Assembly (NCBI RefSeq): GCF_013122565.1
Contig: NZ_CP053258.1
Origin: Escherichia coli
GTDB taxonomy: Bacteria > Pseudomonadota > Gammaproteobacteria > Enterobacterales > Enterobacteriaceae
Length of the DNA: 64,000 bases
Strand: one strand, 5' to 3'
Under the pieces are notes generated by a model. That model did no database searches. It was not told where the DNA came from and was given only the letters and a program-made list of their open reading frames with translations. Position numbers and translations under genes: made by a program. Shown in pieces: positions 50,122-55,317 of the stretch (its first letter is position 1; the number at the start of each line of letters is the position of its first letter).

Positions 50122-52191
50122 ATGTCTGAGAAAACTTTTCTGGTGGAAATCGGCACTGAAGAGCTGCCACCAAAAGCACTGCGCAGCCTGGCAGAGTCCT
50201 TTGCTGCGAACTTTACTGCGGAGCTGGATAACGCCGGCCTCGCACACGGCACCGTTCAATGGTTTGCTGCTCCGCGTCGTCTGGCGCTGAAAGTAGCTAA
50301 CCTGGCGGAAGCGCAACCGGATCGTGAAATCGAAAAACGCGGCCCGGCGATTGCCCAGGCGTTCGACGCTGAAGGCAAACCGAGCAAAGCGGCAGAAGGT
50401 TGGGCGCGTGGTTGCGGTATTACCGTTGACCAGGCTGAGCGTCTGACTACCGATAAAGGCGAATGGCTGCTGTATCGCGCCCATGTGAAGGGCGAAAGCA
50501 CTGAAGCACTGCTGCCGAATATGGTTGCGACTTCGCTGGCGAAGCTGCCGATCCCGAAACTGATGCGTTGGGGCGCAAGCGACGTGCACTTCGTGCGTCC
50601 GGTGCACACCGTGACCCTGCTGCTGGGCGACAAAGTCATTCCGGCAACCATTCTGGGCATTCAGTCCGATCGCGTGATTCGCGGCCACCGCTTTATGGGC
50701 GAGCCGGAATTCACCATCGATAACGCCGATCAGTATCCGGAAATTCTGCGTGAGCGCGGGAAAGTCATCGCCGATTACGAAGAACGTAAGGCGAAGATTA
50801 AAGCCGATGCCGAAGAAGCAGCACGGAAGATTGGCGGTAACGCTGACTTAAGCGAAAGTCTGCTGGAAGAAGTGGCTTCGCTGGTGGAGTGGCCGGTTGT
50901 GCTGACCGCAAAATTCGAAGAGAAATTCCTCGCGGTGCCGTCTGAAGCGCTGGTTTACACCATGAAAGGTGACCAGAAATACTTCCCGGTGTATGCGAAC
51001 GATGGCAAACTGCTGCCGAACTTCATCTTCGTTGCCAACATCGAATCGAAAGATCCGCAGCAAATTATCTCTGGTAACGAGAAAGTCGTTCGTCCACGTC
51101 TGGCGGATGCCGAGTTCTTCTTCAATACCGACCGTAAAAAACGTCTGGAAGATAACCTGCCGCGCCTGCAAACCGTGCTGTTCCAGCAACAGCTGGGTAC
51201 GCTGCGTGACAAAACTGACCGCATCCAGGCGCTGGCTGGCTGGATTGCTGAACAGATTGGCGCTGACGTTAACCACGCAACCCGTGCGGGCCTGCTGTCT
51301 AAGTGTGACCTGATGACCAACATGGTCTTCGAGTTCACCGACACCCAAGGCGTTATGGGGATGCACTACGCGCGTCACGATGGCGAAGCGGAAGATGTCG
51401 CGGTGGCGCTGAATGAGCAGTATCAGCCGCGCTTTGCCGGTGATGACCTGCCGTCCAACCCGGTAGCTTGTGCGCTGGCGATTGCTGATAAGATGGATAC
51501 TCTGGCGGGTATCTTCGGTATCGGTCAGCATCCGAAAGGCGACAAAGACCCGTTTGCGTTGCGTCGTGCCGCACTTGGCGTACTGCGTATTATCGTTGAG
51601 AAGAACCTCAACCTTGATCTGCAAACGCTGACCGAAGAAGCAGTGCGTCTGTATGGCGATAAGCTGACTAATGCCAACGTGGTTGATGATGTTATCGACT
51701 TTATGCTCGGTCGCTTCCGCGCCTGGTATCAGGACGAAGGTTACACCGTTGATACCATCCAGGCGGTACTGGCGCGTCGTCCGACTCGTCCGGCTGATTT
51801 CGATGCCCGTATGAAAGCGGTATCGCACTTCCGTACCCTGGAAGCAGCTGCAGCACTGGCGGCGGCGAACAAACGTGTATCTAACATCCTGGCGAAATCT
51901 GACGAAGTGCTGAGCGATCGCGTGAATGCCTCTACTCTGAAAGAGCCAGAAGAAATTAAACTGGCGATGCAGGTTGTGGTGCTACGTGACAAGCTGGAGC
52001 CGTACTTTGCGGAAGGTCGTTACCAGGATGCGCTGGTCGAACTGGCAGAGCTGCGTGAGCCGGTTGATGCTTTCTTCGATAAAGTGATGGTCATGGTTGA
52101 TGACAAAGAATTGCGAATCAACCGTCTTACCATGCTGGAGAAACTGCGCGAATTATTCCTGCGCGTTGCAGATATTTCGCTGTTGCAGTAA
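50122..52191 (+). CDS. glyS: Glycine--tRNA ligase beta subunit
   Basis: 689-aa [39 protein letters not shown]... Confidence 0.97.
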
Positions 52192-52205
52192 TCGATAAGT
52201 AATGG

Positions 52206-52241
52206 AAAAACCGACATTCATTTTGGGTGTCGGTTTTTTTT
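52206..52241 (+). terminator. Rho-independent terminator of glyQS
   Basis: Stem aaaaaccgaca / tgtcggttttt with 11-nt loop, followed by T-run (52234..52241). Confidence 0.8.
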
Positions 52242-52259
52242 AATCTTAAGGAATGAGAT

Positions 52260-52619
52260 TTGGCAAAGTTACGAAAGATAGTGGTGGCTGGTCGCACCTG
52301 GTTTTGGGTTTATCGTTACTACTATGCAGATGAGCGAGATTGTTATTTAAGGATAATAAGCGAAGATAAAAAAGCACAGTTTGTAATCTATTTCAGAACT
52401 CCTACTTACCATTACGGTTGTCACCCATTAAATGATGGCCTGCCAGCTTTATACAATAATGTAAAAATCAATATTAATTTGAATCAACCTCGCTTTGTGG
52501 CTCAGTTACTGACTTATGTGTTGGAGAATATTCTTCAAGGTACACCATCAGATGTAATCGAGTACGAGAACGGTAATGAGATGTTACAGCAGCTTGGGTA
52601 TGAGTTTGATTATAAATAA
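52260..52619 (+). CDS. Hypothetical protein, 119 aa, TTG start, AT-rich orphan ORF
   Basis: ORF track 52260..52619 (MAKLRKIVVAGRTWFWVYRYYYADERDCYLRIISEDKK...); AGGA 9 nt upstream of TTG; visibly AT-rich compared with flanking glyS; no family recognised. Confidence 0.4.
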   Translation: MAKLRKIVVAGRTWFWVYRYYYADERDCYLRIISEDKKAQFVIYFRTPTYHYGCHPLNDGLPALYNNVKININLNQPRFVAQLLTYVLENILQGTPSDVIEYENGNEMLQQLGYEFDYK

Positions 52620-52894
52620 TAAAATCCTCATGCCCCATAAATCCTGGTTAATACGATTGTGTTTAATAATCACCTGTTGAATATAATATTATTTATCTAT
52701 TCATTAAGTGAAATTTTTTTTCGGAATTTATCAACAAGAGTGAAATCAGAATTTACGCTAGAATAGCTGCGGGTGCTTGAGACTGTTTGTCTCAGGTATT
52801 CACCGAAAGGCAGACAGAGAAAAGCCCCACCTGACTATAAATCAAAGTGTACTGCACCCATTTTGTTGGACGATGAAATGGAATAGCCCCTGAT

Positions 52895-53416
52895 ATGTCA
52901 AAGCCAAAATACCCTTTTGAAAAGCGCCTTGAAGTCGTGAATCACTACTTCACTACTGATGATGGTTACAGGATCATCTCGGCACGTTTTGGTGTCCCCC
53001 GAACCCAGGTCAGGACATGGGTTGCCCTCTATGAAAAACATGGAGAAAAAGGTTTAATTCCCAAACCTAAAGGTGTTAGTGCTGATCCAGAGTTGCGTAT
53101 TAAGGTCGTGAAAGCTGTGATCGAGCAGCACATGTCCCTTAATCAGGCTGCTGCTCACTTTATGCTTGCTGGTAGTGGTTCTGTAGCCAGGTGGCTGAAG
53201 GTTTATGAAGAGCGCGGAGAAGCTGGTTTACGCGCGCTCAAGATTGGCACCAAAAGAAACATTGCAATATCAGTTGATCCAGAAAAAGCGGCATCAGCAT
53301 TGGAGCTGTCAAAAGACCGACGCATTGAGGATCTTGAAAGGCAAGTTCGATTTCTTGAAACGCGGCTTGTGTATCTAAAAAAGCTGAAAGCCTTAGCTCA
53401 TCCCACGAAAAAGTGA
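52895..53416 (+). CDS. insJ: IS150 OrfA (HTH DNA-binding protein)
   Basis: 173-aa ORF MSKPKYPFEKRLEVVNHYFTTDDGYRIISARFGVPRTQVRTWVALYEKHGEKGL... Confidence 0.95.
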   Translation: MSKPKYPFEKRLEVVNHYFTTDDGYRIISARFGVPRTQVRTWVALYEKHGEKGLIPKPKGVSADPELRIKVVKAVIEQHMSLNQAAAHFMLAGSGSVARWLKVYEERGEAGLRALKIGTKRNIAISVDPEKAASALELSKDRRIEDLERQVRFLETRLVYLKKLKALAHPTKK

Positions 53417-54264
53417 AAGTACTCAACGAGCTAAGGCAGTTTTATCCTCTTGATGAGCTTCTCAGGGCTGCGGAGATACCGCGCAGTACGTTTTATTACC
53501 ATCTAAAGGCTCTCAGCAAGCCTGACAAGTATGCGGACGTTAAAAAGCGTATTGGTGAGATTTATCATGAGAATAGAGGCCGATACGGATACCGTAGGGT
53601 AACGCTGTCTCTTCATCGAGAAGGGAAACAGATTAACCATAAAGCTGTTCAGCGCCTGATGGGAACCCTCTCACTTAAGGCAGCGATTAAGGTCAAGCGA
53701 TACCGCTCTTACAGAGGAGAGGTAGGGCAAACCGCCCCCAATGTTCTCCAAAGAGATTTCAAGGCTACGCGGCCAAACGAGAAGTGGGTTACCGATGTTA
53801 CTGAATTTGCAGTCAATGGGCGCAAGCTGTATTTGTCTCCAGTAATAGATCTCTTCAACAATGAAGTTATTTCTTACAGCCTTTCGGAAAGACCTGTGAT
53901 GAACATGGTTGAGAATATGCTCGATCAGGCATTCAAAAAGCTTAATCCTCACGAGCATCCTGTTCTGCACTCTGACCAGGGATGGCAGTATCGTATGAGA
54001 AGATATCAAAATATCCTTAAAGAACATGGTATTAAACAAAGCATGTCCAGAAAAGGCAATTGTCTGGATAATGCTGTGGTGGAGTGTTTCTTTGGAACCT
54101 TAAAGTCGGAGTGTTTTTATCTTGATGAGTTCAGTAATATAAGCGAACTGAAGGATGCTGTTACGGAATATATTGAATACTACAACAGAAGAAGAATTAG
54201 CCTGAAATTAAAAGGTCTGACTCCAATTGAATATCGGAATCAGACCTATATGCCTCGTGTTTAA
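53413..54264 (+). CDS. insK: IS150 OrfB (DDE integrase/transposase catalytic domain)
   Basis: 283-aa ORF overlapping insJ; DDE region (WVTDVTEF..., HSDQGWQY...); OrfAB fusion expected by -1 frameshift at the heptamer. Confidence 0.95.
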
Positions 54265-54306
54265 CTGTCCAACTTTTTGGGGTCAGTACAAAGTGAGGCT
54301 GCCTCT

Positions 54307-54520
54307 ATGCTTCAACAACATAAGGTTAGCCTCTTACTCGTTGGAAATCAACACAGGAGGCTGGGAATGCCGCAGAAATACGGATTACTATTCGTTAATA
54401 GTGATTTGTTTCACGCTTTTATTTTTCACCTGGATGATAAGAGATTCACTGTGTGAATTGCATATTAAACAGGAGAGTTATGAGCTGGCGGCGTTTTTAG
54501 CCTGCAAATTGAAAGAGTAA
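54307..54520 (+). pseudogene. hokA: hokA locus (Hok-family membrane toxin), apparently frameshifted and separated from its upstream region by IS150
   Basis: Hok C-terminal domain SLIVICFTLLFFTWMIRDSLCELHIKQESYELAAFLACKLKE is encoded to the stop at 54518..54520, but the Hok-type start MPQKY (ATG 54367) is in the +1 frame and reads MPQKYGLLFVNSDLF... to a stop at 54454. An overlapping mok-like frame starts at ATG 54307. Confidence 0.55.
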
Positions 54521-54679
54521 GAGTCTTCGGCGGGAAATTATTCCCGCCTTTCTTACGGTGTTGGGTATTCTCAATGCACCCTAATTTATTTCTTTAATGA
54601 ATGTTTTTTTTAAAAAATACGCATGGATTTGGCTATTAGATAAGTTTTTAATCGGGAACAGGAATGGTTCGGAGCCTTC

Positions 54680-55051
54680 ATGAATAAACTGCTTTTACTG
54701 TTGATAATGCTTTATCAACGACATCTTTCTCCTCGCAAAGGATACCGCTGTGCTTACAGTGTGTTGTACCAAACGCAGGGATGTTCGGGAGCAGTCAAAG
54801 AGATTATTCAACAGAAAGGTGTTATTGCAGGCTGGGGCGATATACGTCAGCGTTTTGCAGATTGCCGACTTGCGGCAAAGACAATCAGGCAGAAGCAACA
54901 CCTGAACGAGGTAATACGTAAAAAGAAGAATAATGATTGTGATTGTTCCGGGTGTGATGGTGCGGTCTGTCGTGATTGCGACATTCCGGTGCCGGATCTG
55001 GATTGTTCCTGGGACTGTTCTTCTCTACATTTAAAGCGGTTTTTCCAATAA
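54680..55051 (+). CDS. YidD-like (DUF37-like) protein with cysteine-rich C-terminal tail
   Basis: 123-aa ORF MNKLLLLLIMLYQRHLSPRKGYRCAYSVLYQTQGCSGAVKEIIQQKGVIAGWGDIRQRF... resembles the YidD core as I recall it (YQxxISP..G..CRF.P.CS...G.IKG.W); tail NNDCDCSGCDGAVCRDCDIPVPDLDCSWDCSS holds 8 Cys; GGAG 8 nt upstream. Confidence 0.5.
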   Translation: MNKLLLLLIMLYQRHLSPRKGYRCAYSVLYQTQGCSGAVKEIIQQKGVIAGWGDIRQRFADCRLAAKTIRQKQHLNEVIRKKKNNDCDCSGCDGAVCRDCDIPVPDLDCSWDCSSLHLKRFFQ

Positions 55052-55104: not shown

Positions 55105-55317
55105 TTACAGGCTGGTTACGTTACCAGCTGCCGGGCCTTTAGCGCCGCTTTCGATGGTGAAGGACACTTTCTGACCTTCGTCCAGAGATTTGTAACCATC
55201 GTTCTGGATAGCAGAGAAGTGTACAAACACGTCTTTAGAGCCATCGTCAGGAGTGATGAAGCCGAAGCCTTTGTCAGCGTTGAACCATTTTACGATACCA
55301 GTCATTTTACCGGACAT
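55105..55317 (-). CDS. cspA: Major cold-shock protein CspA
   Basis: 70-aa [73 protein letters not shown]. Confidence 0.98.

Follow-up and report, generated by a model that had tools for sequence, protein, structure and literature searches.

A frameshifted hokA allele beside an IS150 insertion in the glyS-cspA interval of Escherichia coli

Background

Inactivation of chromosomal hok/sok loci by insertion elements and by point mutations is well known in Escherichia coli. The described system closest to the locus treated here is hokA/mokA/sokA of E. coli K-12 MG1655 (b4455, b4647 and b4614), which lies at the same glyS-cspA locus and encodes the same toxin, and in which, as here, sokA is interrupted by an IS150 copy that also separates mok/hok from the hok promoter and leader (PMC11551753). 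Besides sokA::IS150 in MG1655, insertions of the same element in sokE have been recorded in more than 400 natural isolates (PMC11551753). With respect to the toxin, the two cysteines are important in Hok proteins, and neither is missing from HokA (bioRxiv 10.1101/2025.08.07.668861). Quasi-palindromes, which enter the argument further below, are known hotspots of template switching (PMC7202029).

The locus in the window, by which we mean the whole analysed stretch of 64,000 nucleotides, differs from that of K-12 in several respects. K-12 hokA is in frame and encodes 50 aa, whereas hokA of the window is frameshifted. IS150 of K-12 (W3110; positions 1558-3000 of L002) is inserted in the opposite orientation to that of the window; its left junction is only 1-2 bp away from the window's site (52847), whereas its right junction is located 43 bp further in, at TACTCGTTGG (window position 54335), with the mokA start deleted. 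Such an arrangement points either to a deletion adjoining IS150 that took away the mokA start, or to a second event very close to the first site. In addition, K-12 lacks a yidD-like gene and an ORF of 119 aa, both of which are present in the window.

Results and discussion

Organization of the locus

The region corresponds to the E. coli glyS-cspA interval, and its elements follow one another in the order glyS, 119-aa ORF, IS150, hokA, yidD-like gene and cspA. The individual features, with the basis of their assignment where one applies, are:

50122-52191, plus strand: glyS
52260-52619, plus strand: ORF of 119 aa
52771-52847, plus strand: 5' part of the hokA mRNA leader (GGGTGCTTGAG... at the 5' end, tac/ucb hairpins; RF01794 positions ~1-84, 86 bits)
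52814-52847, minus strand: 3' part of sokA, separated by IS150 from the promoter and the 5' part of the gene (K-12 annotation mapped)
52845-52847 and 54291-54293: AAG, the 3-bp target duplication on both flanks of IS150
52848-54290, plus strand: complete IS150 of 1443 bp (both terminal repeats located; RefSeq match)
52895-53416, plus strand: insJ (ORF list)
53413-54264, plus strand: insK (ORF list)
54291-54366, plus strand: 3' part of the hok leader, mokA start and hok ribosome-binding region (RF01794 positions ~84-157)
54367-54520, plus strand: hokA pseudogene (translations, alignments, family matches)
54529-54581, plus strand: hokA 3' UTR with a terminator-like hairpin (predicted fold of the reconstructed mRNA)
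54680-55051, plus strand: yidD-like gene
55105-55317, minus strand: cspA

Several features of the surroundings are worth recording in their own right. None of the 5,426 complete E. coli genomes searched contains the 470 bp that lie between glyS and the hokA promoter (52193-52662). The 119-aa ORF in this segment has no match in Pfam or NCBIfam; the closest proteins are one from an E. coli draft contig (99% match), a contig that ends just after the ORF, and one annotated in Escherichia fergusonii (92% match). The adjoining promoter-proximal stretch of hokA (52662-52770) shows only about 85% identity to other strains. On the other side of hokA, the yidD-like gene is a second gene of this kind; it encodes 123 aa, matches TIGR00278 with 75 bits over residues 3-69 and carries a cysteine-rich C-terminal extension. 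It is present in strains LHM10-1, GF60, 50579417 and CUPF09 and absent from K-12, ExPEC XM and O121. The cspA thermoregulator RNA (RF01766; 55050-55478, minus strand, 481 bits) is located downstream as expected; it departs from the model by one inserted and one deleted nucleotide, neither of which occurs in ExPEC XM.

The hokA reading frame

The hokA gene of the window comprises 154 nt, compared with 153 nt for an intact gene. The frame opened by the ATG at 54367 starts with MPQKYGLL, continues with 21 out-of-frame residues and ends after 29 codons at a TGA (54454-54456; complete translation MPQKYGLLFVNSDLFHAFIFHLDDKRFTV*), so that the hokA start codon does not open the uninterrupted stretch of about 50 codons expected of the toxin gene. 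The Hok body, from S9 to E50 (54392-54517; SLIVICFTLLFFTWMIRDSLCELHIKQESYELAAFLACKLKE), is read in the +1 frame (...YYSLIVICFTLLFFTWMIRDSLCELHIKQESYELAAFLACKLKE*, stop at 54518-54520). It is this +1 frame that contains the Hok/Gef domain: it matches the Pfam family HOK_GEF over 54368-54517 (PF01848, 1.5e-20) and the NCBIfam HokA equivalog NF007290 with 107.8 bits at a cut-off of 89, the latter for residues 8-50 only. The product of the start-codon frame gave no family match in the same profile search. A preliminary description of this sequence had placed the Hok start and the Hok body in different frames and the +1 frameshift near codon 9; the two translations and both family databases agree with the former, and the frameshift itself was found at codon 8/9. 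RefSeq, too, labels the identical sequence in strain LHM10-1 (E1J55_RS00805) as a pseudogene, "hokA, frameshifted".

The consequences extend to the upstream reading frame. The ATG at 54307 precedes the hok ATG by 60 nt and is in frame with hokA; the mokA gene annotated in K-12 likewise shares the hokA frame, and in-frame Mok-Hok products of 70 aa are on record (protein cluster P0019). The frameshift therefore truncates the putative MokA also, to 49 aa. The resulting product of 29 aa (or 49 aa) would possess neither the transmembrane helix nor the conserved cysteines C29 and C46, and it is thus predicted to be incapable of acting as a pore-forming toxin. As far as can be judged from the sequence, the hokA locus would be without toxin-antitoxin activity.

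Two further observations concern hokA as such. A small antisense ORF (54497-54568, minus strand) overlaps the 3' end of hokA and corresponds to K-12 ysaE (23 aa); its counterpart in LHM10-1 is annotated as a hypothetical protein. In a HokA variant of 72 aa (P0020; 96 contigs) the start region is altered (...RRLGCRRNMKYRLLSLIV...): the hok ATG no longer has its usual context, and a new ATG is found two codons later; this variant is widespread in some E. coli, for example UMEA 3108-1.

The IS150 insertion

The element upstream of hokA has the characteristics of IS150, a member of the IS3 family, namely a length of about 1.4 kb, terminal inverted repeats, overlapping ORFs and a 3-bp target duplication. 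Its two ORFs encode 173 and 283 aa and overlap at 53413-53416, and the matching element is named "IS3-like element IS150 family transposase" in RefSeq, with programmed frameshift. IS150 and hokA share their direction of transcription, and the distance between the end of the element and the mok ATG at 54307 amounts to exactly 16 bp (54291-54306), as had been noted in the preliminary description.

That description had also stated that IS150 separates the locus from its upstream region, which is borne out by the RNA family model of the sok/hok leader (Rfam RF01794). In the IS-free locus of ExPEC XM (L003) this model matches contiguously with 120 bits; in the window, a contiguous hok leader with antisense sok is missing, and the match is split into 52771-52847 and 54291-54369, model positions ~84-157 aligning to 54289-54369. 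The position of sokA was set by mapping the K-12 annotation: the 35-nt sokA remnant of K-12 MG1655 (b4614) maps exactly to 52814-52848 on the minus strand, beside IS150, and the remaining 5' portion of sokA, together with the promoter, is expected to lie at 54291-54366 on the minus strand. A scan for consensus promoters picked out neither the hokA nor the sokA promoter. Taken together, the mapped features show that IS150 has left the hokA promoter and the first ~77 nt of the leader on one side and mok/hok on the other, and that the antisense sokA gene is likewise divided by the element.

The 3' end of the locus has been preserved. The hokA 3' UTR contains a G+C-rich stem-loop (54529-54548) and an intact 3' element, TCTCAATGCACCC (54569-54581), whose sequence complements the 5' end of the mRNA (fold-back inhibition). 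When the reconstructed mRNA is folded in silico, GGGTGCTTGAGA (starting at 52771) pairs with this element. The tac/fbi complementarity between the 5' and 3' ends of the mRNA is thus present, with the partners placed 1.8 kb apart by IS150.

As an observation aside, a stretch of about 20 nt around the mok start (54298-54320, the Sok target region) is hypervariable among the compared loci (L003-L012), with several substitutions and a 1-nt indel, in contrast to the almost unchanging leader and ORF on either side; the hokA alleles look mosaic.

Identity of the extra base

The window was aligned with K-12 W3110 and with the uninterrupted locus of ExPEC XM (L003). Compared with the K-12 hokA ORF, there are four differences, all inside 14 nt, the remainder being identical; the three substitutions were read from the alignment with K-12 and ExPEC XM, the insertion as a gap column against all in-frame alleles:

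54381 (C): silent change, TAT to TAC
54382 (G): R6G, AGA to GGA
54390, plus strand: inserted A, frameshift, TTA CT-T TC to TTA CTA TTC
54394 (G): TCT to TCG, silent if in frame

The insertion follows codon 8 of hokA, which is codon 28 of the in-frame mokA. Leu-Ser is regained by deleting either the A at 54390 or one of the two Ts at 54391-54392, and the window sequence by itself is ambiguous in this respect. The extra base had initially been described as a T, a reading that requires an in-frame CTATCG precursor (TAC GGA TTA CTA TCG), which is absent from the 5,426 complete genomes. The motif CTATTCT occurs in four other assemblies (PSJ-23, TB06053, CUPF09 and Escherichia sp. E1V33), and the nearest in-frame relatives of these read CT-TTCT. 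Because CTATTC is found on CT-TTCT backgrounds and the CTATCG precursor is missing, the extra base is best read as an inserted A (+A in the following); the presence of one surplus base stands, whereas its identification as T had to be dropped.

A similar distinction applies to residue 6. The exchange of Arg6 for Gly, pointed out before together with the frameshift, is present, but it is not a sign of decay, as R6G and the silent TAC are found in the intact 50-aa HokA alleles of O121 RM8352 and GF3-3. By this comparison R6G is a standing polymorphism. The idea that a single complex mutation produced all four clustered changes was discarded on the same grounds, TAC GGA being present in the intact O121 and GF3-3 alleles.

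Distribution of the frameshift allele

A patch of 81 nt identical to the window was found in 7 of 5,426 complete E. coli genomes (LHM10-1, VE-T9, XJ5.2, CP52E, UTME-7, 6EVA and wlxctx60), which were obtained from pig, cattle, beef, humans and a bear in different countries. The agreement between LHM10-1, with its hokA labelled as frameshifted in RefSeq, and the window extends over 54292-54600 with 100% identity, including +A, R6G and the IS150 junction. Outside this stretch the window differs from LHM10-1 in the glyS-proximal 470 bp, at eight positions of IS150 and by one T in a T-run. Since the window differs from all seven carriers, it represents an eighth independent record of the frameshift allele. 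Neither an identical reference gene nor a sequencing error, both of which the preliminary description had considered as alternatives, was found: K-12 hokA is in frame and not identical to the window, and the seven genomes with the 81-nt patch, together with the RefSeq label, speak for a real frameshift. Comparison among assemblies shows the insertion to be a heritable trait of a lineage rather than a read error. A scan of metagenomes for the +A pattern returned 0 matches and was uninformative.

Two side observations concern the remaining differences. The T8 run at 54597-54604, upstream of the yidD-like gene, is a T7 run in all seven closest genomes and is either a true homopolymer polymorphism or an assembly error of the window. 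The IS150 copies of the window and of LHM10-1, which occupy the same site, differ at 52892, 52954, 53074, 53212, 53306, 53537, 53895 and 54189; these eight differences beside a 100% identical hokA could be due to gene conversion between IS150 copies or to an independent insertion.

The inserted A on several haplotypes

Altogether, +A was found in 10 of the 5,426 complete genomes and in Escherichia sp. E1V33, which belongs to a separate species-level lineage of Escherichia. The insertion is seen on at least three hokA haplotype backgrounds, which may be counted as three or four groups: the window type, a type otherwise identical to K-12 (PSJ-23 and TB06053), and the type of CUPF09 and Escherichia sp. 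E1V33, whose alleles are related to each other and may share a single event.

The site of the insertion lies in an inverted repeat, identified by DNA folding, which consists of ATTACTATT (54384-54392), the loop CGTT and AATAGTGAT (54397-54405). In the in-frame alleles this repeat is imperfect (ATTACT-TT / CTTT / AATAGTGAT); the inserted A fills the spot opposite the unpaired T of AATAGT and gives rise to a 9-bp stem with one T.G. Folding of single-stranded DNA yields 0 kcal/mol without and -3.1 kcal/mol with the A (z -4.4 to -5.7). Among 463 distinct single-base insertions in the ORF, +A ranks 11th (top 2.4%) with respect to the gain in stability and the length of the perfect arms. This rank does not single out +A if taken as the sole pointer, as ten other insertions score equally well or better. 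The insertion nevertheless makes an imperfect repeat more perfect, as is typical of template switching at quasi-palindromes. The quasi-palindrome reporters of the Lovett laboratory in E. coli (PMC7202029) resemble hokA in that an imperfect repeat with a short loop is made more perfect by a single-base change and an identical change is seen more than once. In contrast to these hotspots, the mechanism is only proposed for hokA, the hokA repeat has short arms of 6 perfectly paired bp (9 if one T.G is included), and the T.G mismatch next to the insertion was left uncorrected. The insertion would then be a templated "correction" of an imperfect inverted repeat, and if the hotspot holds, such a correction would account for the occurrence of an identical insertion outside a homopolymer on several haplotypes. 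On this circumstantial evidence, +A has quite possibly arisen by quasi-palindrome template switching.

Alternatively, a single old +A allele might have been spread across hokA backgrounds by homologous recombination, without any recurrent mutation. The hokA alleles are indeed mosaics of shared variant blocks, CUPF09 and E1V33 have several downstream variants in common, and between the K-12 type and the CUPF09 type the nearest right-hand marker is about 44 nt away from the insertion, all of which is compatible with transfer. In the window type, however, lineage markers flank the A closely (54381-54382 at a distance of 8-9 nt on its left, 54394 at 4 nt on its right), which implies a transferred tract of less than about 12 nt or additional mutations afterwards. 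Moreover, apart from +A, the locus of PSJ-23 and TB06053 is identical to that of K-12 throughout, down to the K-12 IS150 junction. We therefore regard spread by recombination as unlikely, albeit worth keeping in mind, and recurrent mutation as a possible, somewhat likelier reading.

IS150 at hok/sok loci of other strains

The frequency of the window's IS150 junction was surveyed with a 140-nt query centred on the junction and a required coverage of at least 98%, evaluated in 60 evenly spaced rows. It was present in 9 of the 60 sampled rows, which by interpolation corresponds to about 830-930 records, or some 800-900 complete genomes, nearly all of them presumably with hokA in frame. An earlier count of 112 junction-sharing genomes proved to be misleading, as its 80% coverage criterion hung on the flank containing the yidD-like gene. 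Strains GF60 and 50579417 carry IS150 at the window's site next to different hokA alleles with intact frames. Judging from this survey, the position of IS150 in the window is a common allele and not the K-12 site.

IS150 was also found at the homologous position of other hok paralogues. In hokC/mokC of E. coli E308 (positions 427-1870 of L016) and in hok/mok of plasmid pDETEC2 (positions 427-1870 of L017), the element has the same orientation as in the window and ends about 16 nt before the mok start. Like the known sokE insertions, these affect other paralogues than the one in the window; their target duplications are ACC (hokC of E308) and CCA (plasmid hok), as opposed to AAG in the window, and a conserved GAGGC follows directly on the 3' side of each of the three. 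A preference of IS150 for some conserved feature of sok genes or hok leaders is suggested by this pattern, and it would also explain why the element landed at hokA. Combining both lines of evidence, hok loci may possibly be lost by two sequence-directed routes, one in which the quasi-palindrome in codons 6-13 repeatedly templates +A in unrelated lineages of Escherichia, and one in which IS150 recognises a conserved sequence or structure and repeatedly disarms hokA, hokC, hokE and plasmid hok at an equivalent nucleotide 5' of GAGGC; we put this forward tentatively.

Order of the two lesions

IS150 occurs without the frameshift in GF60 and 50579417, and +A occurs without IS150 in CUPF09 and Escherichia sp. 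E1V33; the two lesions thus arise independently of each other. All eight window-type sequences carry both of them. Because IS150 is frequent at this site, the frameshift is rare, and the sampled IS150 genomes have an intact hokA frame, the frameshift is probably the younger of the two, and it would represent neutral decay of a locus that was already silenced.

A different view would be that the frameshift was positively selected. IS150 points toward hokA and cuts sokA; if it had destroyed the antitoxin and driven read-through into the leaderless mok/hok, loss of the toxin would have relieved a cost. The co-occurrence of both lesions in every window-type sequence, and of +A with an IS150-disrupted sokA in 2 of the 3-4 +A haplotype groups, would fit such a scenario. 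The seven genomes, however, belong to one lineage, so that this enrichment is not independent evidence, and +A also arises in CUPF09 and E1V33, which have no IS150. In addition, hundreds of genomes (by interpolation) carry IS150 at the same site and in the same orientation, and those sampled have an intact hokA. With only 7 frameshifted genomes among many IS150 carriers, the combination of IS150 and an intact hokA is evidently tolerated. Selection for the frameshift is thus rather improbable, and neutral decay after the IS150 insertion is the reading we retain.

Expression of the Hok body and reality of the frameshift

One could also imagine that the Hok body is still made, through a 97-aa ORF starting in IS150, through initiation at the internal GTG (54401) or through ribosomal frameshifting, which would render the locus a rewired toxin gene. 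The +1 frame is in fact open from a TTG at 54227 in the right end of IS150 to 54520, and N-terminally extended Hok proteins, such as the in-frame Mok-Hok of 70 aa (P0019), are natural. On direct inspection of the sequence, however, no start codon in the +1 frame is accompanied by a plausible ribosome-binding site, a slippery motif is absent at TTA CTA TTC, and a product starting at GTG 54401 would be deprived of the N-terminal charges and part of the helix. Escherichia sp. E1V33 closes the same frame by a TAG just upstream of the hok ATG, which indicates that the open frame in the window is an accident of the allele, and RefSeq treats hokA as a pseudogene. Continued production of Hok is accordingly very improbable in our view, and read-through from the co-oriented IS150 giving a Hok-containing product, let alone expression of a functional toxin, appears unlikely.

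Single-base indels are the commonest type of assembly error, the window is one T off its seven closest relatives in the T8 run at 54597-54604, and a T5 run of the related record P0003 (on L015) contains another indel that "restores" the frame; yet the notion that the extra base is such an error and that hokA of this strain is really intact has next to nothing in its favour, given that the inserted base is located outside any homopolymer, that the same 81-nt sequence is found in seven independent complete genomes from varied hosts and countries, and that +A recurs in four further assemblies with other haplotypes and in 10 member sequences of cluster P0001, assembled from independent read sets. 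The seemingly compensated allele P0003, in which the frame is regained 13 codons later, was itself set aside as sequencing noise; the assembly it comes from splits glyS into four ORFs.

Conclusions

The locus in the glyS-cspA interval is, with high probability, a real, heritable and multiply inactivated remnant of the hokA/mokA/sokA type I toxin-antitoxin system. The original characterization as doubly inactivated is supported in that at least two lesions are present: the frameshift truncates HokA and MokA, and IS150 splits the leader and sokA. It is an ordinary decayed locus, and its exact allele is already contained in public annotation as a frameshifted pseudogene. As the frameshift is real and no assembly error, annotation should keep hokA as a pseudogene here. 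Arg6Gly and the position of IS150 should not be over-read, the former being normal polymorphism and the latter a common allele. A small follow-up is perhaps worthwhile for two aspects only, namely the recurrent +A and the preference of IS150 for sok genes. If true, the recurrent insertion of A would extend quasi-palindrome hotspots beyond laboratory reporters to a natural case, and together with site-specific insertion of IS150 it would provide a natural example of sequence-directed loss of toxin-antitoxin genes.
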